27,724 nucleotides of DNA from a virus (taxonomy: Duplodnaviria > Heunggongvirae > Uroviricota > Caudoviricetes). Both the position numbers and the translations under genes were made by a program. Positions within the stretch are counted from its first letter, which is position 1. The number at the start of each line of letters is the position of its first letter. The stretch is taken from positions 1 through 27,724 of the IMG/VR virus record IMGVR_UViG_2617270952_000002. One strand, written 5' to 3'. The notes below the pieces were generated by a model. The model was not told where the DNA came from. It ran no database searches and saw nothing but the letters and a program-made list of their open reading frames with translations. This document shows, piece by piece, positions 5,483-23,443 of the stretch.

Positions 5483-5579
5483 ATGGCAAAAAAAAGCGGC
5501 CTAATGGCCGCCAATGATGTCAAGGAGTGTAGTAATAGCAACGTCTTCGTAGTTGACAAAAACTGCGGTTAAATTATAT

Positions 5580-5596
5580 CAATCAATTAGAGCAAT
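5580..5596 (-). promoter_or_regulatory. C1 operator upstream of ref (overlapping a TATAAT -10 on the minus strand)
   Basis: caatcaattagagcaat; about 14/17 match to rc of ATTGCTCTAATAAATTT. Confidence 0.6.
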
Positions 5597-5729
5597 GGTA
5601 GGTATTTTTTTTATCGCGAATCACATTTTTTTACTTCAGTACCTGTGTGCTATACTCCTTCTTGATTGATTGGATGCGGAATACAAACCCGCTCTTTTGT
5701 GCAGCCTGGCTCCTTGCCAGGCTTTTTTT

Positions 5730-6041
5730 TTATTTCATCATGGAAGCTGTTAACGCTTTGGACCTTGCTGAACTGATTGAAAGGGCATTGTTTACCTTAC
5801 CCAGGAGTTCGCCAAATTCCGCCATCACTCTAGTAAGCCCGCGCCGCGCTTCCTCCTCCGTTGCATTCATCACAAAATGTTCAGCACTCCGCATGCTTTT
5901 AACGGGGAACGCAACAGATATCGAGTCGATATCAGGCATCCTATCGCTCAACTTTACGGTGACAATGACGGCTGGCGACTGAATATTAGTGCTTACAGAC
6001 AGCACTACATATTTTCCGTCGATGTTGAAATCCTTTCTCAT
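5730..6041 (-). CDS. hypothetical protein (103 aa) between cre and ref (position of P1 cra)
   Basis: Track ORF; C1 operator immediately upstream at 6058..6074. Confidence 0.5.
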   Translation of the reverse strand: MRKDFNIDGKYVVLSVSTNIQSPAVIVTVKLSDRMPDIDSISVAFPVKSMRSAEHFVMNATEEEARRGLTRVMAEFGELLGKVNNALSISSARSKALTASMMK

Positions 6042-6057
6042 ATGTCACCATAAATAT

Positions 6058-6074
6058 CAAAGAATTAGAGCAAT
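6058..6074 (-). promoter_or_regulatory. C1 operator-like site
   Basis: caaagaattagagcaat; about 13/17 to operator consensus. Confidence 0.45.
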
Positions 6075-6091
6075 AATTTACGCGTTAATGG

Positions 6092-7123
6092 CTAATCGCC
6101 ATCTTCCAGCAGGCGCACCATTGCCCCTGTTTCACTATCCAGGTTACGGATATAGTTCATGACAATATTTACGTTGGTCCAGCCACCAGCTTGCATGATC
6201 TCCGGTATTGAAACTCCGGCGCGGGCCATATCTCGCGCGGCTCCGACACGGGCACTGTGTCCAGACCAGGCCAGGTATCTCTGACCAGAGTCATCCTTAG
6301 CGCCGTAAATCAATCGATGAGTTGCTTCAAAAATCCCTTCCAGGGCGCGAGTTGATAGCTGGCTGGTGGATGATGGCGCGGCAACACCATTTTTTCTGAC
6401 GCGGCAAAACAGGTAGTTATTCGGATCATCAGCTACACCAGAGACAGAAATCCATCGCTCAACCAGTTTAGTTACCCCTAGGCTAAGTGCCTTCTCTACA
6501 CCAGCGGTGCTAACCAGCGTTTTCGTTCTGCCAATATGGATTAACATTCTCCCACCGTCAGTACGTGAGATATCTTTAACCCTGATCCTGGAAATTTCGG
6601 CTATACGTAACAGGGTGTTATAAGCAATCCCCAGAAATGCCAGATTACGTATATCCTGGCAGCGCTCACTATTTTCCATGAGTGAACGAACCAGGTCGAA
6701 ATCAGTGCGTTCGAACGCCAGCGCCTGTTTTGCACGCTCACCGGCATCAACGTTTTCTTTTCGGATCCGTCGCATGACCAGTGAAACAGCATTGCTGTCA
6801 CTTGGTCGTGGCAGCCCGGACCGACGATGAAGCATGTTTAGCTGGCCCAAATGTTGCTGGATAGTTTTTACTGCCAGACCGCGCGCCTGAAGATATAGAA
6901 GATAATCGCGAACATCTTCAGGTTCTGCGGGAAACCATTTCCGGTTATTCAACTTGCACCATGCCGCCCACGACCGGCAAACGGACAGAAGCATTTTCCA
7001 GGTATGCTCAGAAAACGCCTGGCGATCCCTGAACATGTCCATCAGGTTCTTGCGAACCTCATCACTCGTTGCATCGACCGGTAATGCAGGCAAATTTTGG
7101 TGTACGGTCAGTAAATTGGACAT
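6092..7123 (-). CDS. cre: Cre site-specific tyrosine recombinase
   Basis: 343 aa MSNLLTVHQNLPALPVDATSDEVRKNLMDMFRDRQAFSEHTWK...; matches remembered P1 Cre almost throughout; loxP lies about 420 bp upstream. Confidence 0.97.
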   Translation of the reverse strand: MSNLLTVHQNLPALPVDATSDEVRKNLMDMFRDRQAFSEHTWKMLLSVCRSWAAWCKLNNRKWFPAEPEDVRDYLLYLQARGLAVKTIQQHLGQLNMLHRRSGLPRPSDSNAVSLVMRRIRKENVDAGERAKQALAFERTDFDLVRSLMENSERCQDIRNLAFLGIAYNTLLRIAEISRIRVKDISRTDGGRMLIHIGRTKTLVSTAGVEKALSLGVTKLVERWISVSGVADDPNNYLFCRVRKNGVAAPSSTSQLSTRALEGIFEATHRLIYGAKDDSGQRYLAWSGHSARVGAARDMARAGVSIPEIMQAGGWTNVNIVMNYIRNLDSETGAMVRLLEDGD

Positions 7124-7130
7124 TTAACAC

Positions 7131-7352
7131 TCAGATAATGGTTTTAAGTAAAGTGTACAGGATCGGCTCTGCCTTTACCTGTTTATGGTTCTCGTCATAG
7201 AAACGCCAGCGACCACGCGTGCGTTCTATTTTCTCTTCACCGCGCGATAATGACAGTTGACAACTATCACGATCAAACCCTTTTGCCCGCCAGTAACCAC
7301 GGTTTTTCTCAAGCTCAATATGAGTGGACACTTTAGCAGCTGAATATCCCAT
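7131..7352 (-). CDS. hypothetical 73-aa ORF in the cre upstream region
   Basis: Track ORF; GAGGTG 8 nt before ATG; stop 8 bp before cre ATG. Confidence 0.35.
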   Translation of the reverse strand: MGYSAAKVSTHIELEKNRGYWRAKGFDRDSCQLSLSRGEEKIERTRGRWRFYDENHKQVKAEPILYTLLKTII

Positions 7353-7449
7353 TTTTCACCTCTGATTGATTGGTGGTGCTAAGTGCGCTACGCGAAATCT
7401 GGAGCACTAACACTGCCAACATTTCGCAGATTTTACGTAGCGCAACCTT

Positions 7450-7522
7450 GATCAAATGATCAAGTGATCACTATTTGACCTGATAAGGTATTTAACTGTA
7501 TGGATTTACAGGTAAATTGATC
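7450..7522 (-). promoter_or_regulatory. cluster of four GATC (TGATCA) Dam sites in the cre promoter region
   Basis: GATC at 7450, 7458, 7466 and 7519; cre promoters are known to be Dam-regulated. Confidence 0.55.
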
Positions 7523-7541
7523 ATGTTCAATAACCCTTAAG

Positions 7542-7575
7542 ATAACTTCGTATAATGTATGCTATACGAAGTTAT
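7542..7575. other. loxP: loxP recombination site
   Basis: Exact ATAACTTCGTATA-ATGTATGC-TATACGAAGTTAT. Confidence 0.97.
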
Positions 7576-7618
7576 TAGGTCCGAAGAGGAGTTTACGTCC
7601 AGCTGCGCATAAAAATCA

Positions 7619-7635
7619 AGAATTATTAGAGCAAT
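7619..7635 (-). promoter_or_regulatory. C1 operator
   Basis: agaattattagagcaat; 15/17 to rc consensus. Confidence 0.6.
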
Positions 7636-7694
7636 AAATTTTGAGAGAAAAATCCAACTCCACCAGCCAAAAACTGGATTGTTTTTCATAGTTG

Positions 7695-7722
7695 TTTGAC
7701 AATTGCTCTAATGAATTATAGT
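7695..7722 (+). promoter_or_regulatory. sigma70-like promoter (TTGACA-16-TATAGT) with embedded C1 operator 7702..7718, reading toward coi/c1
   Basis: ttgaca ATTGCTCTAATGAATTA tagt; operator 15/17. Confidence 0.65.
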
Positions 7723-7956
7723 TTTGCCGCCGTTTCGTAATACGACTTTGGATTCACTATTTAATGTGTCTTCAGCGTTGTAGAGCGGCTCAGAAGGAAA
7801 TGAGCAAACAGGGAAACCTTATACAACGGCATTACAGCTATGCATTGCTCATCTTACACACAGCGCAATGTTGTTAGATTACCCCAGCATGGATCATGGG
7901 TGAAACAGTAGGTCAGAGCTTCAGGCTCTGTGTTGTCAATACAGTGAGGCATAATT

Positions 7957-8166
7957 ATGGCTTTCATTCAACCAACCATCGACGACGTTAGACATTGCTC
8001 TAACGCTTTATCTGTAGACCCTGCCGAAACCGACGCTGCCCGCGCCATTGCTGAACACTACTCAAAGATATCCAATCAGGAGTACCGCATCACCCAAGAC
8101 GACCTGGATGACCTCACTGACACAATCGAATATCTCATGGCAACTAACCAGTTAGACTCACAATAA
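7957..8166 (+). CDS. coi: Coi, C1 inactivator
   Basis: 69 aa, immediately upstream of c1; size and position as in P1 immC. Confidence 0.85.
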   Translation: MAFIQPTIDDVRHCSNALSVDPAETDAARAIAEHYSKISNQEYRITQDDLDDLTDTIEYLMATNQLDSQ

Positions 8167-8182
8167 ATGCACTAATAAATCT
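8166..8182 (+). promoter_or_regulatory. weak C1 operator-like site between coi and c1
   Basis: aatgcactaataaatct; 14/17. Confidence 0.35.
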
Positions 8183-8276
8183 ATTATTTTTGTTTGATCC
8201 CTCTATAATATAGGTCAGTAATGACCGGTTTTCTCAGCCGGGCGTTATTGACCATGTCAATTCTGGAGGAGGATCA

Positions 8277-9128
8277 ATGATAAATTATGTCTACGGCGAA
8301 CAACTGTACCAGGAGTTCGTCAGCTTCAGGGATCTCTTTCTAAAAAAAGCTGTTGCACGCGCCCAACACGTTGATACAGCCAGCGACGGTCGTCCTGTAC
8401 GCCCGGTTGTCGTTCTACCGTTCAAAGAAACTGACAGCATTCAGGCTGAAATTGATAAATGGACTTTAATGGCGCGGGAACTGGAACAGTACCCAGACCT
8501 CAATATCCCAAAGACTATTTTATATCCAGTGCCTAACATCCTTCGCGGTGTGCGTAAGGTTACAACTTATCAGACAGAAGCTGTGAACAGCGTCAACATG
8601 ACCGCTGGCCGCATTATTCATCTGATTGATAAGGACATTCGCATCCAAAAAAGCGCGGGGATCAATGAGCACAGTGCGAAATACATAGAGAACCTGGAAG
8701 CAACAAAAGAGCTAATGAAGCAGTACCCGGAGGATGAAAAATTCCGTATGCGCGTACACGGCTTTAGCGAAACAATGCTGCGCGTCCACTACATTTCCAG
8801 TAGCCCTAACTACAATGATGGTAAATCAGTTAGTTACCATGTGCCACTGTGTGGCGTGTTTATCTGCGATGAAACTCTCCGTGATGGAATTATCATCAAC
8901 GGTGAATTCGAAAAAGCAAAATTTAGCCTTTATGACTCCATAGAACCGATCATCTGCGACCGCTGGCCGCAAGCAAAAATATATCGCCTGGCAGATATTG
9001 AAAATGTAAAAAAACAAATTGCCATCACTCGCGAAGAGAAAAAGGTTAAGTCAGCCGCATCAGTTACGCGCAGCCGTAAAACCAAGAAGGGGCAGCCAGT
9101 AAACGACAACCCCGAAAGCGCGCAATAA
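8277..9128 (+). CDS. c1: C1 repressor of lysogeny
   Basis: 283 aa MINYVYGEQLYQEFVSFRDLFLKKAVARAQHVD...; matches remembered P1 C1. Confidence 0.95.
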   Translation: MINYVYGEQLYQEFVSFRDLFLKKAVARAQHVDTASDGRPVRPVVVLPFKETDSIQAEIDKWTLMARELEQYPDLNIPKTILYPVPNILRGVRKVTTYQTEAVNSVNMTAGRIIHLIDKDIRIQKSAGINEHSAKYIENLEATKELMKQYPEDEKFRMRVHGFSETMLRVHYISSSPNYNDGKSVSYHVPLCGVFICDETLRDGIIINGEFEKAKFSLYDSIEPIICDRWPQAKIYRLADIENVKKQIAITREEKKVKSAASVTRSRKTKKGQPVNDNPESAQ

Positions 9129-9160
9129 ATTATGCCCGGCATCAACCGGGCATTCTTCCA

Positions 9161-10279
9161 TTATTCAGCCGCCACCGGTTTTAACAAGCCAGCATCGAGC
9201 AGTTTACGCGTCAACCACTGCTGGCCTTTACCCGTTAATTGAGGCGTCAACCGTATCTGGTAGCCATCTTCATCATCCAGCACCACTTCTTTCACCGTGA
9301 AATACCCCGCGTTGATGTACTGCTGGAACGGCACATTTTTACGTCCACCGGACGCTATCAGGATGCCGTTCTCCCGTAACCAGACAAACAGCGCGTTTTG
9401 TTTAAGTCCAACAACCTTTGCAAAATTCCCAATCAGGATCCCTTTAGCTACTGATACCCGGTCGGCAAAATCGACTTTAGGAGCGGCGGCCACCAGCTGC
9501 TGATTTAGCTGGTGGGCTTTCTGTTCCAGAAGTTGCTTTTGTTCAGCCAGTTCGGCAGCCAGGCGTAGGGCTTCAGGAAGCGTCTGGGGGATTGCGATCG
9601 GTTGCTGTTCTTTTTGTCGGAAGTAGCTGTCTTCCAGTTTTTCAAAGAATGCCCATGCCTGATCGGTTTCGAGCATTTTAGCGTGGCGGGCTGCGCCGCG
9701 TTCTGTCCAGAGGGGGAGTGAGCGAACATTGCGAGCAATTTTTACAGAGTAGTTTAAAGCTACTCTGTGCTTCAACTCGCGCAATGATTCTCCTTCAACT
9801 TTGAAAAAGTGCTTCCCTTCAACAAAGCGTACTTTGTTCTCATGATGATTTTGGCGAATACGGATTGTTTCTGTCCCATACCCTCTAGCAAGAGTCTCGG
9901 TTGTCACTACACGCACTCCCTGCCATTCCAGAACGGGAATTTCATCAGACTGATTCTGAACAACCACCAGCTCCGATTCTTGAACTGAAGGTGCATGAAT
10001 TTTTTCTGATTTAACGTTAGTTGCTTTCATTCTGTGTGCCTCCTTGCGTGCTTCGGCTGCGGCGGTTGCGTAATTCAGATGACCCTGTTCGAGCAGGTAT
10101 TCGCGGATATCAGACAACAGGATACGGTGAACCGCGTTCTTGTCCTTTCTCCGGTAAAGTTGTTTGGTGATCATGAAGTAGTTGGCAATAACGCCTGGTA
10201 TATCCCTGGTACTGATACAGGCAGTGTGCTGTTCAATTGCCTCGATCATCTCTTCACGGGTGACTAATGACGTTCTCAT
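9161..10279 (-). CDS. phage antirepressor-like protein (ORF6N-like central domain, KilA-C/ANT-like C-terminal domain)
   Basis: C-terminal ...VSVAKGILIGNFAKVVGLKQNALFVWLRENGILIASGGRKNVPFQQYINAGYFTVKE... resembles ANT C-terminal domain; central FVEGKHFFKVEGESL...LWTERGAARHAKMLETDQAWAFFEKL resembles ORF6N. Confidence 0.7.
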   Translation of the reverse strand: MRTSLVTREEMIEAIEQHTACISTRDIPGVIANYFMITKQLYRRKDKNAVHRILLSDIREYLLEQGHLNYATAAAEARKEAHRMKATNVKSEKIHAPSVQESELVVVQNQSDEIPVLEWQGVRVVTTETLARGYGTETIRIRQNHHENKVRFVEGKHFFKVEGESLRELKHRVALNYSVKIARNVRSLPLWTERGAARHAKMLETDQAWAFFEKLEDSYFRQKEQQPIAIPQTLPEALRLAAELAEQKQLLEQKAHQLNQQLVAAAPKVDFADRVSVAKGILIGNFAKVVGLKQNALFVWLRENGILIASGGRKNVPFQQYINAGYFTVKEVVLDDEDGYQIRLTPQLTGKGQQWLTRKLLDAGLLKPVAAE

Positions 10280-10497
10280 AGTCCCTCCTGAGCAGAAGCG
10301 TTAACAGGGAGGCACCAGTAACTGAGAGAATTGCGTGAATCAGTGGAAAAACGGGCAGAGAAAATACATGGGGCGTCAGGAAGCTGAGAGCGGGCCTCAT
10401 CTTCTGTCGGTGCAATAACGAAGTGATAGTGACGTTTTTGGCAGGAGTAAAAGCGCCAGATAAATTCAGGATGAGTTGGGATAGGGATAGTAGCCAT
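10276..10497 (-). CDS. hypothetical 73-aa protein immediately upstream of and overlapping the antirepressor start (Icd-like position)
   Basis: ATG at 10497 preceded by AAGGAGG; stop overlaps the antirepressor ATG (ATGA). Confidence 0.45.
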   Translation of the reverse strand: MATIPIPTHPEFIWRFYSCQKRHYHFVIAPTEDEARSQLPDAPCIFSARFSTDSRNSLSYWCLPVNASAQEGL

Positions 10498-10557
10498 ATT
10501 GGCAGCCTCCTTAGACGTTGGTATGTAACCACCGCAGAAGAGACCAATCTTGCTGGC

Positions 10558-10633
10558 GGTGGACTGTACGGAGTTGGCCTTACTGGCGTCCAAGGTAACC
10601 AGCCTACCCGAAGGTAGCCCCATACAGCCCACC
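10558..10633 (-). ncRNA. candidate structured regulatory RNA (c4-like antisense RNA position)
   Basis: 14-bp RNA duplex possible between 10620..10633 and 10558..10571 that includes two G-U wobbles (pairs only as minus-strand RNA), enclosing a CUACC-UUCG-GGUAG tetraloop hairpin at 10604..10617. Confidence 0.3.
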
Positions 10634-10661
10634 ATTGTAGAGGTGTGCGTGTACGCCGATA

Positions 10662-10686
10662 CAAAAAAAAGACGCGAGCGGCGTCT
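10662..10686 (-). terminator. rho-independent terminator downstream of pacB
   Basis: Hairpin gacgc-gagcg-gcgtc at 10671..10685 followed on the minus strand by a run of 8 T. Confidence 0.6.
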
Positions 10687-10816
10687 GTATCGCCTTAGAC
10701 TTAAGCGGGAGGCCAATCCCGGCACCCGTTTTAATGAGGTGCCTGATAAGCATAAACCGAAAATGCCTCAAGGCGCAAGAGGTCAGGCTCAATGTAACAT
10801 CGGTAGTTAAAAAACA

Positions 10817-10833
10817 CAATTTATTAGAGCAAA
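10817..10833 (-). promoter_or_regulatory. C1 operator
   Basis: caatttattagagcaaa; 15/17 to rc consensus. Confidence 0.6.
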
Positions 10834-10836
10834 TAT

Positions 10837-12321
10837 TCATTCATTAAGCCATGCCAGAGCTTCATCAACCTGCGCTTCGTCTTCGACGCTAAGCACTTCA
10901 TCCTGGGGAACATAATCCGCCAGCATAGCGAAACAATATGTATCCCAATGGTCTGGTGAGTGCAGGTTGAGTTTTTTCTTCATATCCTCCTTACTCATCA
11001 CCTTCCATTGACCTGCGGAGTTAATCCCTACAGGGATTTTCGACGCTTCCTCAATAGTTTCATTACCCTTATCCAGTCTCATACGACCAGATTTTACGGC
11101 CTCTGCGGCTTGAACGTTGGCATAAGCACGTTTATCAAAGTACAGGCTCTTATCTTCACGGCTATGCATCTTTTTACCCCAGCGTATACGCTGTACGGTA
11201 ATACCATAATACTCGTACATCAGATCCGCCGTTGCTTTACCCAGGCCATCGCCGTCTATCGCTATGGTGATATTTGGGAATCGCTCAGGATTACATTCTG
11301 CGAAAATTTTGGCGGCAAGCTGCGTTTCTGTAACGTCTGTGTATTCCAGCATTCGATAGTTGATTACACGGCGTTTATTTCGCTGGCCGGACACCATCAT
11401 GATATTGATAACGGACTTATCCCGTCCCGTACCACCAGCAACGTCCACACATGCAAGCCAGCCCCATCCTTTGGCAATCTTGACTTTCCGCCGCGTTGCA
11501 CGTTCAACCTCATCACGTCCAAGAAGGAAGCCATCCTGTGATTTAGGGAATAGGCCGCGTACCTTAATCATGTACATAGGGTTATCACGCCCGCCGTACT
11601 CCGCCAGCTTCATTTTGATAAATGCTGGCGTTACCAACGGTGATTCCTCACTGTTAAGCGTGATCGCCGTATAAACGCCATCAGGGTTACCAGGACGCTT
11701 GGCCAGTTTATGGTGTGTATCGTAGAAATAGCCGCTTGGGCGTGTAGGCTGTGACAGCAATAAGATGCGGTTATCCTGTCCGGTAAGAGCACCGGTGATG
11801 ATACCGAAAGCTCTATCACTGACACCGGAGGCTTCATCGATAATATACAGAAGATGATCTGCGTGTTCACCGGCGAGAGCTTCTTCACTTCCCAGACGAA
11901 AGCCCTTCGGTACTACAGTCCATACACCTTTACCAGTAACCTCATAGAAAGCGGTTTCTGTCAGAACAAAATAATCAGCAAGCCATGGAAAACGGCTGGT
12001 GGCAGTAGCCCAGTTTATCTTGATGTACTTGAATATACCGGTCATTACCTGCTGAATTTTGTTCGCAACGATAATGGCGCGGGCACCGGGATACATGATT
12101 ATGAACAACATGATCATGATAGAAGTCATGTCTGATTTCCCGGTACCGTGACCAGACGAAACAGATGTCTTGCTACCCTGTTCCTGCACAGACTCAATAA
12201 TCAGATCCTGCTGCCAGGTAGGTGTTTTGCCGAACAAAACATCAGCGGCAGCAATCCAGTCATAACGATATAGCGCCACCAGCTCGCGCCAACGTGGATC
12301 CGTTACGCAACTTCTGGCCAT
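10837..12321 (-). CDS. pacB: terminase large subunit (PacB-like)
   Basis: 494 aa; Walker [10 protein letters not shown], Walker [12 protein letters not shown]; same length as remembered P1 PacB. Confidence 0.8.
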
Positions 12322-12903
12322 TAATCATCATCCCCGTATAGCTTGCGGGTAACTTCTTCGTCTTCCTCCTCGTCTTCGTCCAGGTCTTGTTCCAGCCATG
12401 GGTCGTTTGATACACCTTCAGTATCAACATCTCCATAACCGCCTGTATCAACGATATCGGCGATTTCTTCCCTACGCTGCTCAATCCACAATGCGGCATC
12501 GGCGCGGCGGTTGGCGGCCCGTTCTCGCGCAACTTTGTCCAGATCTTCAAGAGAAGGGCCACCGACGGCTGTTTGCCTTTCCTCATCATCGGTATTGGTC
12601 TTAGGAGCACGCAGATCGGCTTTGATTTGCTCCAGCATCAGGGGCGGCACTTTTCCGCCATGCGCCTCGATGAATTCAGCTGCTTCCAGCACTGACCAGT
12701 TATTTTCACGCTTTCGTTCGTAAGCGCAGATAAACATCGCGCTTATCGACATCCAGATGCGGGTATTCCTTTTCAAGAATTGCTGCGAGTTCTTTCGCTG
12801 ATAGAAGAGATTTAGTGCGGATCATGTAATCCGCAATCTCGTACGATGTTATTCGTGAGTGATTTATTTCCATGAAGTGGCGTCCCTGCCAGTTAAGTAA
12901 CAT
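12321..12903 (-). CDS. putative terminase small subunit / DNA-binding protein region, split over two frames (12706..12903 and 12321..12776)
   Basis: Two overlapping ORFs related by a +1 shift; acidic C-terminal tail DEDEEEDEE abutting pacB start; C1 operator upstream. Confidence 0.4.
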
Positions 12904-12973
12904 CCTGTCACCTACTGATTAGCCCATGTCAACTAATCAACGTGAAATATAATACCCTCGATTAAAGAAATGG

Positions 12974-12990
12974 CAATACATTAGAGCAAT
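12974..12990 (-). promoter_or_regulatory. C1 operator
   Basis: caatacattagagcaat; 14/17. Confidence 0.5.
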
Positions 12991-12991
12991 T

Positions 12992-14035
12992 TTATCTAAC
13001 GCTCGACGAGTGACTTGTGATAGCGCCGACTCCAAGCGCGTAATCAAAGAACAATCGTTGATGCATCGCCAGCCTACCGTGCGTCTTCTCCCAATTATCG
13101 CGGTCACGCTCAATATCACGCTGGCATGACTGGCACAGAGGAATTGCGTAAATGTCATGCGCGTATAATCGACTATGACGAACGATATAAGGCGTAATGT
13201 GAGCGCCAGCTCCCGCCGCTCCACACCCACAGCATGGACGGGAAGCAACAAAGTCCATGTACTCAGGTAATTTTAGCGATTGCAGTTTTGGTATTTTGAA
13301 ATGCGCCATGCCAGGGTCGGAGTCAACATCCACAGGGCATACTTTTGCACGCATCGGCGCGGCGCGTTCTTCCATCATCTGAACATATGCTGTAGCGCGA
13401 TCGTCATACGGGCGAATATCCGCCTCTTTCAGAGGTCCGCTATCCTGCGTTGCGGCTTTCATCTTATTTATTGATATACGGCAAACTTCTTCCGGCATCA
13501 GGTGCATCATGTTGCGCATGAAAGCCCACCAGCACAGTTCCTGAATACTTAAATCATGGCCATCTGAAAGCCCCATTTCCTGACGGGCGACATCCAGTAT
13601 CCAGTTAACGCGATTATTATGCAGCGTTTCTTTCAGCTCATTAAAACCACGCATCCGGTAATGGTTATCGTGATGCCAGCACAACAACACCGCGCTATTG
13701 TCTCGTTCTGCGTGGACAATATGGTTGTCACACCAGCTACGATCTGCGGCCTGGCATTGCCCCTCTTTCCTGCGCAACCACGCCACCAGCGCGTCAATTC
13801 CACCAATACTGCGAAACAGTTCATCGCTGTTAAAAAACGGCTGCAACGCCTCATTTGTTGCCATAGTTTGCTCGGAAACAACGAGGCCGTCGTCCATGTG
13901 CTCGATTAACTCACGCGGCACCGGCTCCATAATAAATTTACGGCCAGCCTCCACCAGCTTTCTGACTTCCTGATCCACTTTGAATGTGGCGACGCCAAGC
14001 TCTTTTTGTACAAAGGGAGTAATTACGGCTTTCAC
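12992..14035 (-). CDS. hypothetical 347-aa protein with Cys/His-rich (Ref-like, HNH-like) motifs; GTG start
   Basis: Motifs [24 protein letters not shown] and [40 protein letters not shown]; the second resembles the Ref motif arrangement. Confidence 0.5.
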
Positions 14036-14062
14036 ATCACACCTTTCATCACTGATTGGGCT

Positions 14063-14242
14063 TTATCTGCTGCCCGGCATTCTCTGTTTAAGCACAACCA
14101 TTTCCTGACGGCATAACACAGCAATAGCGGTCCTGGCTCCAATTTGCTTACCAACCAGGTATTGCTTTACCTCGCGGCGACTCACGCCATCAAGAAGCAT
14201 CTTTAACGCTTCACGGGACAATTTGTTGTATTTGCGTGCCAT
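14063..14242 (-). CDS. hypothetical small HTH-like protein (59 aa)
   Basis: ATG at 14242 with GGAG 7 nt upstream; MARKYNKLSREALKMLLDGVSRREVKQYLVGKQIGARTAIAVL... Confidence 0.4.
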   Translation of the reverse strand: MARKYNKLSREALKMLLDGVSRREVKQYLVGKQIGARTAIAVLCRQEMVVLKQRMPGSR

Positions 14243-14246
14243 TAAT

Positions 14247-14627
14247 CTACTCCGCAGAACCATACAATCTACGTAACGTGTCGGCGACAGAAGATACAGA
14301 TATCTCGCCAGTCGCAGCGCCTACAGTAAGGTCTGCCAGTTCAGGTGAATCAAATACCTGCACCCCGTTACGGCGTAGAAATAGCAGCGCGCTGTTTAGC
14401 GCGGTACGCTTATTGGCATCATTGAATATATGCCCTCTCGCTGTAGCCACCAGGTAGGTGGCGGAGACTTCGAAAAGGTCGGTGATCTCTTCGTAGGCAA
14501 CTCTGGCCTGAACTCTCCCGATAATGGCCTCTGCCCTACCCGGATCTGACATTCCCGGCAAGCCGCCGTAGCGGTTTATATTCGCATCATGAAGCGCAAT
14601 AAGTTCTTCCGGTGATATATGCCTCAT
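14247..14627 (-). CDS. doc: Doc toxin (Fic-fold kinase)
   Basis: 126 aa; Fic motif [10 protein letters not shown]; overlaps phd stop. Confidence 0.95.
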
Positions 14628-14848
14628 TATCGGTTAACCAGTTCCTTGTTGGTGGAGTCCAGGGTGTCAAACAGGGATGCAAATTCAGCATCCAGCGCCG
14701 CTTTTTTGTAGGCTTCGAAAGTAGCCTTGCTGACAATTACTGCTGGCTCACGGCCTCTGCGGGTGATTTCAACCTCTTCCCCGGCCTCAACATTGTTGAG
14801 CACTTCAGAAAGGTTGCCGCGCGCGGTACGGAAGTTAATGGATTGCAT
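14627..14848 (-). CDS. phd: Phd antitoxin
   Basis: 73 aa [49 protein letters not shown]... Confidence 0.95.
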
Positions 14849-14852
14849 AAAT

Positions 14853-14890
14853 ACCTCATGTACTCGTTATGTGTACACAATTATAAACTT
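14853..14890 (-). promoter_or_regulatory. phd-doc promoter with palindromic Phd-binding sites
   Basis: TATAAT (rc of 14880..14885) adjacent to palindrome GTGTACAC at 14871..14878, about 20 nt upstream of phd ATG. Confidence 0.6.
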
Positions 14891-15024
14891 CACAGGCATA
14901 AAGCACCAGCACTTTGCGGCTTAACAAACCTCTAGGCAGGTCATTCGTAGCCTAATGTCCGAACTGCTAAAGCATCCAAGTTGCTGTAGAATCACATCCA
15001 ATTACATAAGCCTGAAATAAGTGG

Positions 15025-16587
15025 ATGAAAATGACAAGTATTCAACAACGTGCAGAGCTTCATCGTCAAATCTGGCAAATTGCTAACGATGTCAGGGGTT
15101 CGGTCGATGGATGGGATTTTAAGCAATACGTTCTGGGCGCACTTTTCTACCGTTTTATCAGCGAAAATTTTTCCAGTTATATTGAAGCCGGTGATGACAG
15201 TATCTGTTATGCGAAACTGGATGACAGCGTAATTACTGATGACATTAAAGACGATGCCATCAAAACTAAAGGCTACTTCATCTACCCCAGTCAGCTTTTC
15301 TGCAACGTAGCTGCGAAAGCAAATACTAATGACAGACTGAATGCAGATTTAAACAGCATCTTCGTTGCTATCGAAAGTTCTGCTTACGGTTATCCTTCAG
15401 AAGCTGACATCAAAGGTTTGTTTGCTGATTTCGATACTACCAGTAACCGCCTGGGTAACACCGTTAAAGATAAAAATGCCCGCCTGGCTGCGGTTCTGAA
15501 AGGGGTTGAAGGGTTAAAACTTGGTGACTTCAACGAACATCAGATTGACCTGTTCGGTGACGCCTATGAGTTCCTGATTTCTAACTATGCGGCGAATGCC
15601 GGTAAGTCAGGCGGCGAGTTCTTTACACCGCAACACGTCTCTAAGCTGATTGCACAACTGGCTATGCACGGGCAGACCCACGTTAACAAAATCTACGACC
15701 CGGCAGCAGGATCCGGTTCGCTGTTGTTGCAGGCTAAAAAACAGTTTGATGACCATATCATCGAAGAAGGCTTTTTTGGTCAGGAAATCAACCATACAAC
15801 CTATAACCTGGCACGTATGAACATGTTTTTGCACAACATCAACTACGACAAGTTTGATATCAAGCTGGGTAATACACTGACTGAGCCACACTTCAGAGAT
15901 GAAAAACCGTTTGATGCCATCGTTTCTAACCCGCCGTATTCGGTGAAATGGATTGGCAGCGATGACCCGACGCTGATTAACGATGAACGTTTTGCCCCGG
16001 CTGGCGTTCTGGCCCCCAAATCCAAAGCTGACTTTGCGTTTGTATTACATGCGCTGAACTATCTTTCTGCCAAAGGTCGTGCTGCGATTGTTTGCTTCCC
16101 GGGTATTTTTTACCGTGGCGGCGCGGAGCAGAAAATCCGTCAGTATCTGATTGACAATAACTATGTCGAAACCGTAATTTCACTGGCACCGAACCTGTTC
16201 TTTGGCACCACCATTGCAGTAAACATTCTGGTTCTGTCCAAACATAAAACGGATACCAACGTTCAGTTTATTGACGCCAGCGAACTGTTCAAAAAAGAGA
16301 CTAACAACAATATCCTGACCGATGCCCATATCGAACAGATTATGCAGGTATTTGCCAGCAAGGAAGATGTTGCTCATCTGGCGAAATCTGTCGCGTTTGA
16401 GACCGTTGTTGCTAATGACTATAACCTGTCGGTGAGCAGCTATGTGGAAGCGAAAGATAACCGCGAAATTATCGATATTGCTGAGCTGAATGCTGAGCTG
16501 AAAACCACGGTCAGCAAAATCGACCAGTTGCGCAAAGATATTGATGCGATTGTGGCTGAAATTGAAGGCTGCGAGGTGCAGAAATGA
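15025..16587 (+). CDS. hsdM: type I restriction-modification system methyltransferase subunit HsdM
   Basis: 520 aa; AdoMet motif DPAAGSGS and catalytic NPPY. Confidence 0.95.
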
Positions 16588-17798
16588 GCGAGATGAGTTA
16601 TCTGGAAAAATTGCTGGATGGGGTTGAAGTTGAGTGGTTGCCATTGGGGGAAATAACCAAATATGAACAGCCAACAAAGTATTTGGTAAAAGCAAAAGAT
16701 TATCACGACACATATACCATACCGGTTCTTACTGCCGGAAAAACATTTATTCTTGGATACACAAATGAGACTCATGGTATTTATCAGGCATCAAAGGCAC
16801 CTGTAATAATTTTTGATGATTTCACCACCGCTAATAAATGGGTGGATTTTGACTTTAAGGCAAAATCATCGGCCATGAAAATGGTTACATCATGTGATGA
16901 TAATAAAACCTTACTGAAATATGTTTACTATTGGCTCAATACATTACCAAGTGAATTCGCAGAGGGAGACCATAAACGCCAATGGATTAGTAATTATTCT
17001 CAAAAAAAAATCCCAATCCCCTGCCCGGATAATCCGGAAAAATCCCTTGCCATCCAGTCTGAAATCGTTCGGATTCTGGATAAATTTACTGCACTTACCG
17101 CTGAGCTTACCGCTGAGCTTAACATGCGTAAAAAACAGTACAACTACTATCGCGACCAGTTGTTGAGTTTTAAAGAGGGTGAGGTTGAGTGGAAGACTTT
17201 GGGAGAGATCGGAAAATGGTATGGGGGAGGGACACCATCAAAAAATAAAATTGAATTTTGGGAAAATGGAAGCATTCCATGGATTTCCCCGAAAGATATG
17301 GGCCGAACACTTGTAGACTCTTCGGAAGACTATATAACTGAGGAGGCTGTTCTACAATCGTCAACAAAACTGATTCCAGCAAACTCGATTGCAATCGTTG
17401 TTCGCTCAAGCATATTGGATAAAGTATTACCAAGTGCATTAATAAAAGTACCTGCTACGCTCAATCAAGATATGAAAGCAGTCATTCCTCATGAAAACAT
17501 CTTGGTTAAATATATTTATCATATGATTGGGTCTAGGGGGAGTGATATTCTGCGAGCAGCGAAAAAGACAGGAGGGTCCGTAGCTTCTATTGACAGTAAA
17601 AAATTATTTTCATTTAAAATTCCGGTTCCTAACATCAATGAACAACAACGAATTGTCGAAATACTCGACAAATTCGACACACTGACTAACTCCATCACCG
17701 AAGGTCTTCCGCGTGAAATCGAGTTGCGCCAGAAACAATACGAGTACTATCGTGATTTACTGTTCAGTTTCCCGAAACCTGAAACTGTCAGTAATTAA
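16584..17798 (+). CDS. hsdS: type I R-M specificity subunit HsdS (type IC-like, TAEL repeat in central conserved region)
   Basis: 404 aa; two target-recognition domains separated by ...[23 protein letters not shown]...; overlaps hsdM stop. Confidence 0.9.
17094..17117 (+). repeat. 2x tandem 12-bp repeat (cttaccgctgag) encoding TAEL-TAEL in hsdS
   Basis: Direct tandem duplication read in sequence. Confidence 0.85.
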
Positions 17799-17919
17799 TT
17801 GATCATTGCTACCGATCGGACCACCTTAACACCCGGTCAGTATATAGACTATTTTTTACGCGCCGGAAGTCACCATTACCCCCCTTCCGGCCCTTGCCAG
17901 ACGGCACAAAGGATGCGCT

Positions 17920-20900
17920 ATGACTCATCAGACACACACCATTGCTGAATCCAATAACTTTATCGTTCTTGATAAGTACATCAAAGCTGAGCCAACAGGC
18001 GACAGCTACCAGAGCGAATCGGACCTGGAACGCGAACTGATACAGGACCTACGGAATCAGGGCTATGAATTTATATCCGTAAAATCACAGTCGGCGATGC
18101 TGGCCAATGTTCGGGAACAGCTTCAGAACCTCAATGGTGTGGTGTTTAATGACAGCGAGTGGCGGCGTTTCACGGAGCAGTATCTGGATAACCCGAGCGA
18201 TGGCATTCTGGATAAGACCCGTAAAATCCATATCGACTATATTTGCGACTTTATTTTTGATGACGAGCGTCTTGAGAACATCTATTTGATAGATAAAAAG
18301 AATCTCATGCGCAATAAGGTGCAGATTATCCAGCAGTTTGAACAGGCGGGTTCTCACGCTAACCGTTATGACGTAACTATCCTGGTTAATGGCTTACCGC
18401 TGGTACAAATCGAACTGAAAAAACGCGGCGTGGCGATTCGTGAGGCTTTCAACCAGATACATCGTTACAGTAAAGAGAGTTTTAACAGCGAAAATTCCCT
18501 GTTTAAGTATCTGCAGCTGTTCGTCATTTCCAACGGCACTGATACCCGTTATTTTGCCAACACGACAAAGCGCGATAAAAACAGTTTTGACTTCACCATG
18601 AACTGGGCGAAATCAGACAATACGCTGATTAAAGACCTCAAAGACTTTACCGCCACCTTTTTCCAGAAACATACTCTGCTTAATGTTCTGGTGAACTACA
18701 GCGTTTTTGACAGCAGTCAGACACTACTGGTAATGCGACCGTACCAGATTGCCGCCACCGAGCGCATTCTGTGGAAAATTAAGAGTTCCTTTACAGCGAA
18801 GAACTGGTCAAAACCGGAAAGCGGTGGGTATATCTGGCACACTACCGGTTCTGGTAAAACCCTCACCAGCTTTAAAGCCGCGCGTCTGGCAACAGAGCTG
18901 GACTTTATTGATAAAGTCTTCTTTGTGGTCGACAGGAAAGACCTCGATTACCAGACCATGAAGGAATATCAGCGTTTTTCGCCAGACAGCGTCAACGGCT
19001 CGGAAAATACCGCAGGCCTTAAACGAAATCTGGATAAGGACGATAACAAAATTATCGTCACTACTATTCAGAAACTCAATAACCTGATGAAAGCAGAAAG
19101 CGATCTGCCTGTATATAATCAGCAAGTGGTGTTTATATTTGATGAATGCCACCGCAGCCAGTTTGGAGAAGCGCAGAAAAACCTGAAGAAGAAATTCAAA
19201 CGCTATTATCAGTTTGGTTTTACCGGCACCCCTATTTTCCCGGAAAACGCCTTAGGCTCAGAAACAACCGCCAGCGTATTTGGTCGTGAATTGCATTCGT
19301 ATGTAATTACCGATGCGATTCGTGACGAAAAAGTGCTCAAATTCAAGGTGGACTACAACGATGTGCGGCCACAGTTTAAGTCTTTAGAGACAGAAACTGA
19401 CGAGAAAAAACTGAGTGCGGCTGAAAATCAGCAGGCGTTTCTTCATCCCATGCGTATTCAGGAAATCACGCAATATATTCTGAATAATTTCCGCCAGAAA
19501 ACCCACCGTACCTTCCCTGGCTCAAAAGGTTTTAATGCTATGTTGGCAGTGAGCAGCGTGGATGCCGCGAAAGCCTATTATGCGACGTTTAAACGGTTAC
19601 AAGAAGAAGCCGCTAATAAATCGGCTACCTATAAACCGCTGCGTATTGCGACAATCTTCTCCTTTGCCGCCAATGAAGAACAAAATGCCATTGGTGAAAT
19701 TTCCGATGAAACTTTTGATACCAGCGCAATGGACAGCAGTGCTAAAGAGTTTCTGGACGCTGCAATTCGTGAATATAACAGCCATTTTAAAACTAACTTT
19801 AGCACCGACAGTAACGGTTTTCAGAACTACTATCGTGATTTAGCCCAGCGGGTTAAAAATCAGGATATCGATCTGCTAATTGTCGTGGGGATGTTCTTAA
19901 CCGGCTTCGATGCTCCAACATTGAACACGCTATTCGTCGATAAAAACTTACGTTATCACGGCCTGATGCAGGCATTTTCCCGCACCAACCGCATTTATGA
20001 CGCCACTAAAACCTTCGGTAATATCGTCACTTTCCGGGATCTGGAACGCTCAACTATTGATGCCATAACGCTGTTTGGTGACAAAAACACCAAAAATGTG
20101 GTGTTAGAAAAGAGTTATACAGAGTATATGGAAGGCTTTACTGATGCTGCTACAGGTGAAGCTAAACGCGGCTTCATGACAGTAGTTTCAGAACTGGAAC
20201 AACGGTTCCCTGACCCTACCAGTATTGAAAGTGAAAAAGAGAAGAAAGACTTCGTTAAACTGTTTGGCGAATACCTGCGTGCCGAGAACATCCTGCAAAA
20301 CTATGATGAATTTGCCACGCTAAAAGCCCTGCAACAAATCGATCTTAGCGATCCTGTTGCGGTAGAAAAATTCAAAGCAGAACATTATGTGGATGATGAA
20401 AAGTTCGCTGAATTGCAAACAATTCGTCTCCCTGCTGATCGCAAGATTCAGGATTATCGTTCTGCCTATAACGATATTCGCGACTGGCAGCGCCGTGAGA
20501 AAGAAGCTGAGAAAAAAGAGAAATCAACCACTGACTGGGATGACGTAGTTTTTGAGGTCGATTTGCTGAAGTCTCAGGAAATAAACCTGGATTATATCCT
20601 TGGACTGATTTTCGAACACAACAGACAAAATAAAGGCAAGGGCGAAATGATCGAAGAGGTCAAACGCTTAATTCGTTCAAGCCTGGGAAACCGTGCTAAA
20701 GAGGGCCTGGTGGTCGATTTTATTCAGCAAACGAACCTGGATGATTTACCGGACAAAGCCAGCATCATTGACGCATTCTTTACGTTTGCTCAACGCGAAC
20801 AGCAACGTGAAGCAGAAGCATTGATAAAAGAAGAAAATCTCAATGAAGATGCAGCAAAACGCTATATTCGCACGTCTTTAAAACGCGAATATGCCACCGA

Positions 20901-21036
20901 AAATGGCACAGAATTAAACGAAACATTACCAAAACTTAGTCCGTTAAATCCGCAATATAAAACGAAAAAACAGGCAGTTTTCCAGAAAATCGTCTCGTTT
21001 ATTGAGAAGTTTAAAGGCGTAGGCGGAAAAATATAG
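17920..21036 (+). CDS. hsdR: type I R-M endonuclease/translocase subunit HsdR
   Basis: 1038 aa; PD-(D/E)xK-like IELKK, Walker A TGSGKT, DEAH-like FDECH. Confidence 0.95.
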
Positions 21037-21115
21037 CCCAATTCGTGTTTTTCTTGCGGGTTCTTAATTAAACCCGCAAGAGACCGTGGGGTTCCAAATG
21101 GCTAATATACTCCCC

Positions 21116-21202
21116 TTACCCATGTGCGACGATATCGCCAAAAGTGATAGAGAACAGCCAGAAATAGATCGCGGCCATAATGATTTTGAATGCCGTGTTC
21201 AT
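21116..21202 (-). CDS. hypothetical 28-aa hydrophobic peptide
   Basis: MNTAFKIIMAAIYFWLFSITFGDIVAHG; AGGAG 7 nt upstream of ATG; C1 operator 83 bp upstream; not in the ORF track (below size cut-off). Confidence 0.35.
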   Translation of the reverse strand: MNTAFKIIMAAIYFWLFSITFGDIVAHG

Positions 21203-21230
21203 ATTTTCAGCTCCTGTGATTGATTGGATA

Positions 21231-21261
21231 CATGCCGCGCCTTGCGGCATGTTTTTATTTT
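21231..21261 (+). terminator. rho-independent terminator-like hairpin (plus strand, downstream of hsdR)
   Basis: catgccgc-gcctt-gcggcatg followed by tttttatttt. Confidence 0.5.
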
Positions 21262-21284
21262 CACTTTCTCTGCTTTAAAAATAA

Positions 21285-21301
21285 ATATTTATTAGAGCAA
21301 T
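21285..21301 (-). promoter_or_regulatory. C1 operator
   Basis: atatttattagagcaat; 16/17 to rc consensus. Confidence 0.65.
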
Positions 21302-21807
21302 TATTGTTGATGGAGAAGCGCGTTTTCATACTCCCTGACCATTAACGTAAGCACGCCGTGCCTCCTGAAAACACGCGCCACTTCAATCTTATCTTCCAGC
21401 GCGAACGCGATTTTACTTAGACCAATTTTCTTAAGGAGATCAATCTTTGCTGGGCCGTCATTTCTGTCATCGGTGGCAGGACGCATAGATAGCAAAGGCT
21501 CAGCCCCGTTTGTTACGTACTTCCGCAGCCAGGCTCGTGTTTTATCCCTTGCGATCTCACAGCGCCCGGTTACAAACCAGACCGTGTAAACGTTAAATAA
21601 CTGGCGCACAATATCAATAACTGGAGTTATGGGAGTATCAGTGTCACAGGCGAGATTAAACTCGTTCCAGTCCTTTGTTAATGCACCTTTACCTGGTGGC
21701 GGAAGCAAATGCAGTCTGTCTTCAGTTGCCTCTGATATTGTTCCATCAATATCAACTATGACGATATACGGACGTTCCTGGTGTGCGTGTTTATTGAAAA
21801 TACTCAA
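21301..21807 (-). CDS. HAD-superfamily phosphatase-like protein
   Basis: N-terminal IVIVDIDGTIS (DxDGT motif I); 168 aa. Confidence 0.6.
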   Translation of the reverse strand: MSIFNKHAHQERPYIVIVDIDGTISEATEDRLHLLPPPGKGALTKDWNEFNLACDTDTPITPVIDIVRQLFNVYTVWFVTGRCEIARDKTRAWLRKYVTNGAEPLLSMRPATDDRNDGPAKIDLLKKIGLSKIAFALEDKIEVARVFRRHGVLTLMVREYENALLHQQ

Positions 21808-21879
21808 ATGCCCTCCTCATTGGACGAAAAAAATGCTGGTGGGCGCACTCCACCAGCATCAAAAGTGACACTGTAACTG

Positions 21880-23142
21880 TCAGCGAACGTAAATAGTGCC
21901 GCCGTTCTCTTTTTCCCATGCATCGCTACGTGCATAGCAAACATCGAGAAGTCTTCTTGCCGCTGTTTCCTCTAAACCCAATTCGACAACCAACTGCTCA
22001 TGACGGCGGGTAACCACATCAAACAGGGTATGCAGCCCTTTAGCTGCCAGATCATCAATAAATTCCGGTTCGAACGGCAGCTCTGCCTCTGCCAACATAA
22101 CCTCTTGCGCCCACTCAACTCGACGGACCAGTTCCGGGCGGCGGCTTTCCATCTCTTTACAGATCAATTCATGGAAGAACTCTACCCAACCTTCCGGCTG
22201 GAACTCGCGGAAAATGGCCAACGGCTGGAAGTTTGGCATCAACCATTCGTTGATTCGGATATCAATGGCATAGCCCATGTCGCAGCAGAACTGATAAGCA
22301 AAGTCCAGCTTAGAAACGATATAAGGACGCTCGTTATTGAACTCTTTAGGCGATGAGATCCCATAAGCCAGGAGGCGCGGGAAGAAGGAGATTTGCCCTA
22401 ACGTCGGATGAAGTTTGCTTGCAGGGAAACGTCGCTCAGTAATGCCATACATTTCCTTCTTGAGCGTCGCAAATTTGGCATTCTCATTAACCAGCGCGGT
22501 AACCTCTGCTTTTTTATTAGCAAATGCCACGCGCGCCTCACTTGCATCTTTAATAGTCTTTTTGAGCTGTTGGTTAAGGTCGGCGACCTGCTTACGCAGT
22601 TCCTGTCGCTCACTTTTGGCTTTGTTATAGCGTTTCTCAAGGTTAAAAGGATCAAGTTTCATGATCTCTTTATATTGAGATTTTAGCGTTGAAATCTGTG
22701 AGTTCCGCAGTTCAACCATCGCGGTCACTTCATTGAGTTTTGTTTCCAGCTCAATGCTTATACGTTCGGCATTATCAGCACGCTGGTTGGCGTCATGCGT
22801 CGCATCGTCGATCGCGTCCTGTTGCTGGCGTTTCAAATGTTCAATTTGCAGCTGAAGCTCTTCAATTTCTTTACCCTTCAGACCGAGATCCAACTGCATA
22901 TTTTCAGCTGCATCTACCAGGGAGTTATGGCTATCAGCTTCTGCGTTATAAACATCAATAAGCTGTGCGTGAAGCATCTCCGCTGACTGAACCGCATTAT
23001 CAAAAAAACGTGCTGTGAGGTCATCACAACTAACGCGGCGTTGCGCGGCCCGGATGTTCTGGATAATGGCCGGGATACCGGCATTCAGGACATCAGGGAT
23101 AGATACATTTTCGATTGATTGGTTTTGTGCTGAAGTGCTCAT
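21880..23142 (-). CDS. hypothetical protein with long coiled-coil N-terminal half (420 aa)
   Basis: Track ORF; heptad-rich Q/E/K/L sequence in residues ~90-230; start immediately after upstream stop. Confidence 0.55.
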   Translation of the reverse strand: MSTSAQNQSIENVSIPDVLNAGIPAIIQNIRAAQRRVSCDDLTARFFDNAVQSAEMLHAQLIDVYNAEADSHNSLVDAAENMQLDLGLKGKEIEELQLQIEHLKRQQQDAIDDATHDANQRADNAERISIELETKLNEVTAMVELRNSQISTLKSQYKEIMKLDPFNLEKRYNKAKSERQELRKQVADLNQQLKKTIKDASEARVAFANKKAEVTALVNENAKFATLKKEMYGITERRFPASKLHPTLGQISFFPRLLAYGISSPKEFNNERPYIVSKLDFAYQFCCDMGYAIDIRINEWLMPNFQPLAIFREFQPEGWVEFFHELICKEMESRRPELVRRVEWAQEVMLAEAELPFEPEFIDDLAAKGLHTLFDVVTRRHEQLVVELGLEETAARRLLDVCYARSDAWEKENGGTIYVR

Positions 23143-23143
23143 T

Positions 23144-23442: not shown

Positions 23443-23443
23443 A

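Follow-up and report, generated by a model that had tools for sequence, protein, structure and literature searches.

A candidate phage-encoded small RNA and its predicted complementary boxes in a P1-like plasmid prophage

The window analysed here is the whole 27,724-nucleotide (nt) stretch of the IMG/VR virus record IMGVR_UViG_2617270952_000002, which, judged by its sequence, is a P1-like (Punavirus) plasmid prophage. The window contains several copies of an 11-letter box, TGATTGATTGG. These boxes probably constitute a small regulon, in which one copy encodes the 5' end of a phage-encoded trans-acting antisense small RNA (sRNA) and the other copies are complementary sites in transcripts from the opposite strand. 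The features that carry this reading are the boxes and their non-random number, the promoter and terminator signals around a short non-coding stretch, the predicted fold of that stretch, its conservation in three lineages, and covariation within its stem, all of which can be read directly from the DNA.

Exact copies of the box are located on the plus strand at positions 5663–5673, 7363–7373 and 21217–21227, as listed in the initial annotation. An exact count gives three copies where 0.03 are expected, and none of 100 shuffled windows contained three or more, so that the number of copies and their shared strand bias exceed chance as had been claimed. Allowing one mismatch adds a single copy matching at ten of eleven positions (CGATTGATTGG, 23112–23122), which has the same orientation as the three exact ones. 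The complete 94.8-kb reference genome of P1 (NC_005856) contains the same three exact boxes only, at 186, 1885 and 84367, all in one orientation, where its base composition predicts 0.05. Similarity among the copies in the window ends at the box, and they have no longer stretch in common. Two near-copies had been proposed. The one at 23112 is genuine and conserved, whereas the one at 14049 shares only the seven nucleotides CCAATCA with the box. The pairing energy of the 14049 sequence is equalled by 9% of shuffles and the sequence is absent from relatives, and it is therefore taken as a chance resemblance.

In three cases the box had been described as ending 10–15 nt upstream of a minus-strand start codon and being followed by a Shine-Dalgarno sequence. 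This anatomy applies to the copies at 7363 and 21217, but the copy at 5663 has no start codon, and the copy at 23112 lacks a nearby Shine-Dalgarno sequence and is positioned inside the pmgS gene, from +21 to +31. The gap between box and ATG is 10, 14 or 15 nt, falls to 0 nt at the ref gene of Cronobacter phage JK004, and is replaced by an intragenic position, +21, at pmgS. Thus, the copies do not share a fixed position relative to a Shine-Dalgarno sequence and start codon, and one of them has no open reading frame (ORF). With spacings from 0–15 nt upstream to +21 downstream, the boxes do not fit a fixed-geometry enhancer or promoter element. The predicted target sites are all in sense orientation and are situated between −25 and +31 relative to start codons, more often than expected by chance. 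The idea of a shared translational or transcriptional control element was right in spirit, since the link to translation-initiation regions stands, and wrong in anatomy, since the copies are not one class of element 5' of Shine-Dalgarno sequences. The best reading of the boxes is shared post-transcriptional control.

The copy at 5663 differs from the others. On the minus strand it is followed by AGGAG without a usable start codon, the nearest ATG being 28 nt further on and followed at once by TGA. This AGGAG is the complement of CTCCT at plus-strand positions 5655–5659, which consists of the 3' end (CT) of a −10 hexamer and the three bases that follow it. When the plus strand is read instead, an extended −10 element, the seed, a small stem-loop and an intrinsic terminator follow one another (Table 1). 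The terminator stem has eight pairs, six of them G-C, and the terminator would act on plus-strand transcription only, since on the minus strand an A-run precedes the hairpin and no U comes after it. The 71-nt stretch 5662–5732 folds at −23.2 kcal/mol (z = −3.5; none of 200 shuffles as good). In the predicted minimum-energy fold the first ten bases of the RNA, which are the seed, are unpaired and are followed by the stem-loop and then by the terminator. According to these sequence signals, positions 5664–5731 have their own promoter and Rho-independent terminator around a short non-coding stretch, and both signals are kept in three lineages. The candidate sRNA contains no conserved ORF, and the AUG in its P1-type version is missing from that of JK004. 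The equivalent in P1 is the complement of positions 1827–1896.

Position 5664–5731 matched no Rfam 15 family at its gathering score; the best sub-threshold family was SorX, which scored 22.6 bits where its gathering score is 46.6. Among 5,426 complete E. coli genomes the unit occurs in 615, nearly always on plasmids, and RefSeq annotates no RNA gene at the unit in any of these 615. A full-text literature search with the box returned unrelated papers only, and searches for P1 sRNAs yielded nothing on this locus. A preprint on P1 RNA sequencing reports on c4 and the annotated genes, with no RNA described at the position of the candidate. The sequence signals suggest that 5664–5731 is a previously undescribed, predicted sRNA of about 68 nt with a 5'-terminal seed.

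Table 1 Features of the window that are discussed in the text
Feature	Position	Strand	Remarks
Predicted extended −10 element, TGcTATACT	5648..5656	+	read from sequence; 7 nt before the seed
Candidate sRNA, ~68 nt	5664..5731	+	5' end placed at G5664 (or T5663), 3' end in the T-run; both predicted
Seed GATTGATTGG (as RNA, GAUUGAUUGG)	5664..5673	+	the 5663–5673 copy minus its first base
Small stem-loop of the candidate sRNA	5672–5695	+	predicted fold
Intrinsic terminator	5703..5732	+	stem 5703–5723, then nine T; terminator scan
cra-cre leader box	7363..7373	-	between leader hairpin 7384–7444 and Shine-Dalgarno sequence GAGGTG; cra ATG at 7352
Type I restriction-modification locus hsdM, hsdS, hsdR	15025–21036	+	replaces the P1 segment pmgT to humD
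Small ORF MNTAFKIIMAAIYFWLFSITFGDIVAHG, 28 residues, hydrophobic	21116..21202	-	unannotated; P1 84390–84476
Small-ORF leader box	21217..21227	-	between hairpin 21230–21252 and GGAG at 21211–21214
C1 operator OpmgT/Op88, ATTGCTCTAATAAATAT	21285..21301	-	matches P1 operator 84293–84309; upstream of the small-ORF leader
pmgS box, CCAATCAATCg	23112..23122	-	codons 7–10 (+21 to +31); probable third target

The remaining copies are located in or near the starts of minus-strand genes. The box in the cra-cre leader is followed by gaGGTGaaaaATG and the start of cra, the first gene of the cra-cre operon, whose ATG begins 10 nt after the box. The second box ends 14 nt before the ATG at 21202 and is followed by caGGAGctgaaaatATG; it precedes a small ORF encoding 28 residues, which has a good Shine-Dalgarno sequence and is positioned behind the C1 operator OpmgT. 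In P1 this ORF is located just before pmgT and is not annotated, and in the window it faces the end of hsdR. The 28-residue peptide is conserved in 109 related loci and has a diverged homologue in the Salmonella plasmid pCFSAN058588. The ORF has no match among Pfam or PHROG families, and protein-family searches with the small ORFs and with Cra gave no informative match. The product could be a membrane-active peptide. The boxes at cra and at the small ORF are unpaired in the predicted folds of their leaders. The predicted duplex with the first 30 nt of the RNA is strongest at the small ORF (−27.5 kcal/mol; none of 1000 shuffles as good), followed by cra (−20.6 kcal/mol; 2.9% of shuffles as good) and pmgS (−18.8 kcal/mol; 1.7%). 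P1 pmgS contains the identical box sequence, matching at ten of eleven positions.

Two further lineages contain the unit and the boxes. Cronobacter phage JK004 encodes a Cra that is 54% and a Cre that is 79% identical, and the Salmonella plasmids pCFSAN058588 and p21-SA00706-0 represent a third lineage. In all three of these genomes the unit is located downstream of a c8-like gene and on the opposite strand to it. Their layout consists of TGaTATACT, 7 nt, GATTGATTGG, a stem-loop of wholly different sequence, GTGCAGCCCGGCgaaaGCTGGGCT and a U-rich tail. The motif TGnTATACT is invariant and always found 7 nt before GATTGATTGG in the P1-type, JK004, L252, L308 and Salmonella-plasmid versions, and the 7 nt themselves vary. 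The seed is invariant in all eight aligned versions from the three lineages, and seed and terminator are the two invariant blocks of the alignment. The first stem-loop has been exchanged for other sequences that still pair, with three pairs changed on both sides (RNAalifold). The terminator is kept, with one exchange of U-A for C-G and additional G-U changes. A covariance model built from the eight-version alignment finds a single strong match per genome, scoring 93.9 bits in the window and 63–91 bits in P1, JK004 and the two Salmonella plasmids. A second sRNA gene was considered on the plus strand at 21216–21259, where a hairpin and T-run have the look of a terminator. The model gives a weak match of 18 bits there, the sequence has no good −10 element, and its appearance is restricted to the P1 type and not kept in pCFSAN058588, so the candidate was rejected.

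A motif search across P1-like genomes, which the initial annotation had proposed as a check, shows that the boxes recur at the same gene starts in P1, JK004 and the Salmonella plasmids. JK004 has five exact boxes, against 0.03 expected, and a copy in the RNA gene matching at ten of eleven positions, all of them on one strand. The five boxes are located in the leader of the cre operon, before an extra gene; before the homologue of the small hydrophobic ORF; at +21 in pmgS; before another short ORF, after a C1 operator and a hairpin; and directly abutting the ATG of the ref homologue, which has no Shine-Dalgarno sequence. The Salmonella plasmids have the box set of JK004 minus the one at ref, and in one of them a further box precedes the second cre-operon gene. 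The cra-leader box is kept in JK004 and the Salmonella plasmids despite diverged flanks and genes inserted before cra, and the small-ORF box is kept in them beside a different hairpin. At pmgS, JK004 and the two Salmonella plasmids match the box at all eleven positions, at the same place, and the surrounding N-terminal codons differ. Overall, the flanks of the boxes have diverged between lineages, the 10–11-mer is unchanged, and the box sites are retained across genomes of differing gene order.

The P1 relative phage D6 has neither the unit nor an exact box, with none at pmgS or in the leader of the recombinase gene dre, and its three boxes with one mismatch compare with 2.5 expected by chance. 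The covariance model found nothing in D6 or SSU5. SSU5-type phages encode a distant cra homologue outside a cre context and are uninformative. A scan of species-representative bacterial genomes with Cre produced only two near-identical E. coli loci.

Variation among close relatives was followed in a P1-type sample of 96 loci, composed of matches from a scan of IMG/VR and loci already collected. The 11-mer and adjacent bases at the sRNA locus are unchanged in 91 of the 96 loci and the −10 hexamer in 95. The AGGAG next to the box is not conserved, being AAGAG in four loci and GAATGAG in JK004, and the −10 element is. The 11-mer in the cra leader is intact in all 75 related loci, and the small-ORF box in 100 of 109. 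Variants of the latter box with C changed to U (three loci) or A to G (one locus) would still pair through G-U, though this is too small a sample to carry weight. Across 58 unique P1-type sequences, 5645–5723 is an island of conservation with a minor-allele fraction of 0.2–1.9%, and its flanks are more variable, at 8.6% over the 84 nt upstream, which comprise Oref and the would-be −35 region, and at 5.7% for the 3' end of the c8 coding region. The low variation of the island is partly forced, since 27 nt of it served as the search anchor.

These conserved sites have to be weighed against the explanation that the repeats are leftovers of chance or ancestry, such as duplicated leader segments, and have no function. 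P1-type sequences are closely related, being 88–100% identical, and conservation within the group accordingly proves little. However, the counts are far above expectation, the 10–11-mer is intact where flanks have diverged between P1, JK004 and the Salmonella plasmids, the copies have no similarity outside the box, and the products of the downstream genes are unrelated. We consider a functionless origin very improbable.

It is also quite improbable that the box is a DNA site, such as an operator or a recombination or module-junction sequence, whose proximity to gene starts is incidental. Copies of the box do occur near C1-controlled promoters, with OpmgT before the small ORF and Oref adjoining the c8-side copy, and one copy is found where the window departs from P1 by the insertion of the type I restriction-modification locus. 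However, the box is non-palindromic, has a strict orientation relative to the downstream gene, is always downstream of the promoter and within the transcript, and has a conserved copy inside the reading frame of pmgS, and the same sites are kept in genomes of different gene order. Known P1 control sites are other sequences, as C1 operators are of the ATTGCTCTAATAAATTT type, and the ATTGCTCTAAT sequences near the boxes are separate, already annotated operators. The suggested comparison with the Lpa late-promoter consensus is also negative, since the eleven annotated P1 late promoters share a −22 element resembling AAGTGACTT, which has nothing in common with the box.

Another explanation is that a protein binds every copy as an RNA element of the sense strand, composed of a hairpin and then CCAAUCAAUCA, and that no antisense RNA is involved. 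The binding factor could be a ribonuclease, a translational repressor of the phage or host, or the ribosome acting through its protein S1. Within transcribed regions the copies all share one sense orientation, and a hairpin precedes most of them, including the c8-side copy when it is read in sense. The base that follows the seed is A in P1-type RNAs, C in that of JK004 and U in those of the Salmonella plasmids. At the targets, the position immediately 5' to the box holds G in JK004 (five of five targets) and A in pCFSAN058588 (four of four) and p21-SA00706-0 (L305; five of five); in the three window targets it holds U, A and A. This pattern of sequence changes fits an extended duplex between sRNA and target. 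The extended box, the −1 base included, changes in concert within a lineage, which is also what a shared recognition site would do.

The antisense and sense-motif models are separated by the asymmetry of the c8-side copy. Only at this copy is the complement of TGnTATACT conserved at a fixed distance, together with a terminator directed solely at the opposite strand. No other copy lacks an ORF, and in JK004 and the Salmonella plasmids no other copy deviates at position 11 of the box. A sense-strand element leaves unexplained both the 7-nt spacing of the TGnTATACT complement with the U-tailed opposite-strand terminator in three lineages and the deviation of this copy alone at position 11. Moreover, a distance to the start codon that ranges from 0–15 nt upstream to +21 is awkward for a fixed-geometry enhancer, and no candidate binding protein was identified. 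We regard a protein-bound sense element as unlikely.

Several observations weigh against an antisense sRNA as the common partner of the boxes. Three P1-type loci have a changed last base of the seed (G to A in two and G to T in one), and the changes are uncompensated at cra. The covariation of the flanking bases consists of same-strand copies sharing an extended box and is equally predicted by a common sense-strand factor or by concerted evolution. In P1 and the window, only one of the three targets offers a pairing partner for the base that follows the seed. Position 11 of the box is a conserved A in the targets, including those of JK004 and the Salmonella plasmids, whose RNAs have an unpaired C opposite to it, which is unexplained and is what a sense element could accommodate. 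The site in pmgS is beyond the first five codons, the usual zone for blocking initiation. The extended −10 element TGcTATACT has no good −35 element, and a generic promoter scan missed the promoter. All versions of the RNA have a U tail, and the internal CUCUUUUGUG of the P1 type becomes CCAUGUGUG or CCAUAGUG in relatives; since this internal U-rich stretch is not conserved, the RNA may or may not depend on Hfq.

Based on the layout of the unit and boxes, a mechanism of control by the candidate sRNA can be proposed. An RNA of about 68 nt would be transcribed from the plus strand of the window, which corresponds to the minus strand of P1, between c8 and ref. Transcription would start from the extended −10 promoter and end at the intrinsic terminator. 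The unpaired first ten nucleotides, GAUUGAUUGG, would then pair with the CCAAUCAAUC boxes in transcripts from the opposite strand. At cra and the small ORF the seed would meet an unpaired box between the leader hairpin and the Shine-Dalgarno sequence, so that the ribosome-binding region becomes occluded, and at pmgS the duplex would form within the early codons. Pairing would most likely block binding of the 30S subunit or trigger decay of the mRNA. We infer that the RNA is made, that it pairs with the boxes and that it represses, and does not activate, its targets; by analogy with known enterobacterial sRNAs, repression is the likely result of pairing. The RNA may thus hold down expression of the Cre operon and leaky expression of early genes. 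C1 operators precede several of the predicted targets, namely OpmgT in the window, OpmgR at pmgR-pmgS, and Oref in JK004, and the RNA may therefore back up control by the repressor in the lysogen. We speculate further, as a rather doubtful extension, that a constitutive sRNA next to c8 constitutes an unseen RNA layer of lysogenic control that silences translation of the Cre operon and several C1-controlled early transcripts, among them those for small hydrophobic peptides that would resemble type I toxins in behaviour, and that the classical c8 locus could be this RNA. The assignment of the c8 lysogeny-establishment locus to the neighbouring ORF is putative only.

If the regulon is real, it adds a post-transcriptional regulator for the cra-cre operon and several C1-controlled early genes, and the conserved, unannotated gene for the 28-residue peptide gains a function. 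The sRNA locus has no annotation in P1, although this is a much-studied phage that gave rise to Cre-lox. The regulon would be compact, with one seed and three to five boxes. Control of lysogeny in P1-like phage-plasmids is of practical interest, since many of them carry resistance genes.

Several further observations concern the sequences around the unit and the boxes. On the plus strand of the window, positions 5579–5588 contain TCAATCAAT, in which nine bases of the box are oriented oppositely to all the other copies. This partial box is situated in the C1 operator Oref, in its variable 3' portion, and the candidate sRNA starts about 75 nt downstream of it. P1 has ATTGATTGC at this site, and the partial box is probably a coincidence. 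Two IMG/VR contigs have foreign DNA, apparently from mobile-element junctions, joined directly upstream of CCTGTGTGCTATACT with the unit intact. One other contig has the seed replaced by vector-like sequence, and these are natural deletion end-points around the unit. The ref gene is directly preceded by a terminator-like hairpin and U-run without a Shine-Dalgarno sequence (P1 2040–2080, window 5480–5515), and in JK004 the box is inserted between the terminator-like hairpin and the ATG (L209 10320–10370). Attenuator control at ref was reportedly proposed in 1988, according to the title of a paper on the gene. An ORF of 50 residues, MKDFVIQRHRMARISHDKPTLRQVVTFCAQAFCVSFTLIYILSLIYQHAR, with a hydrophobic C-terminal half, is preceded by an exact box, a hairpin and a C1 operator in a Salmonella plasmid (L213 3660–3812) and in JK004 at about 70250–70405; it is unannotated in the PLSDB gene table of that plasmid, a table that is incomplete. 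Plasmid pCFSAN058588 encodes a protein of the ProQ/FinO family, a class of RNA chaperones (L304 37203–37733, equivalent to NZ_CP077703.1 84602–85132), which could be relevant to plasmid-borne sRNAs.

A megablast search with window positions 5000–25000 matched phage vB_EcoM-673R5 with 97.8% identity across 96% of the query, and P1, P7, SJ46 and RCS47 gave partial matches. The plus strand of P1 corresponds to the minus strand of the window. Read from right to left, the window contains pmgQ, pmgR, pmgS, pap and a C1-controlled leader, after which the type I restriction-modification locus occupies the opposite strand where P1 has pmgT to humD. Leftward of this locus are phd-doc, pdcA, pdcB, lpa, pacA, pacB and an extra icd/roi module, followed by c1, coi, lox, cra, cre, c8 and ref. 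Notes in the P1 record state that the flanks of the pmgT to humD segment, P1 84263–84482 and 87969–88647, match sequences adjoining the EcoDXXI and R124/3 hsd loci, and the window displays that arrangement in a P1-type plasmid. A C4 antisense RNA (75.9 bits), placed by the Rfam search at 10552–10639, and an RNA of the IsrK family (60.8 bits) are adjacent on the minus strand at 10552–10742, between c1 and pacB, upstream of icd-like and Roi/antirepressor-like genes (ORFs 9161–10279 and 10604–10840). In P1 the immI module (c4-icd-ant) is located elsewhere, at 48 kb, and the c1-pacB interval is empty.

Four kinds of known system resemble parts of the proposed regulon. The Lpa late promoters of P1 also have a short sequence that recurs upstream of several genes. 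However, AAGTGACTT is located at −22 and is followed about 10 nt on by a −10 hexamer, whereas the boxes are inside transcripts, by the start codons. C4, the antisense RNA of the immI locus of P1 and P7 (RF01695), provides an RNA layer in immunity and prevents translation when it pairs with short boxes near a ribosome-binding site. Unlike the candidate, C4 is processed from the transcript of its own targets (icd-ant) and has two recognition sequences borne on loops, whereas the candidate would be a separate unit with dispersed predicted targets 1.7–17 kb away. The boxes are not additional target sites of C4, since the P1 sequences a2 (TTGACAG) and b2 (TGTTAGTG) are unrelated to them.

Type I toxin-antitoxin systems with a trans-encoded antitoxin RNA include tisB/istR-1, shoB/ohsC and zorO/orzO. 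The small-ORF target resembles them in encoding a very hydrophobic predicted peptide of 28 residues, in its structured leader and in a pairing site beside the Shine-Dalgarno sequence, and in relatives the likeness extends to the 50-residue ORF target with its hydrophobic C-terminal half. In contrast to these systems, the RNA gene and the peptide gene do not share a locus, being 15.5 kb apart in the window (5664 and 21202) and about 10.4 kb apart in circular P1, and the candidate RNA also matches the non-toxin genes cra, pmgS and ref.

RybB, OmrA/OmrB and MicC are enterobacterial trans-acting sRNAs with a 5'-terminal seed. The candidate, as known from its sequence, shares with them a length of about 70 nt, an unpaired and conserved 5' seed, a variable stem-loop, a Rho-independent terminator and a U tail. 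Like them, it is predicted to act on several mRNAs, each complementary to it over about 10 nt at, or close to, the ribosome-binding site. It differs in having no sequence or Rfam kinship with them, in being borne on a phage-plasmid, and in that its predicted targets are the phage's own genes. The best-supported classification of the sRNA and its targets is that of a new and undescribed example, from a classic phage, of an already known type of system.

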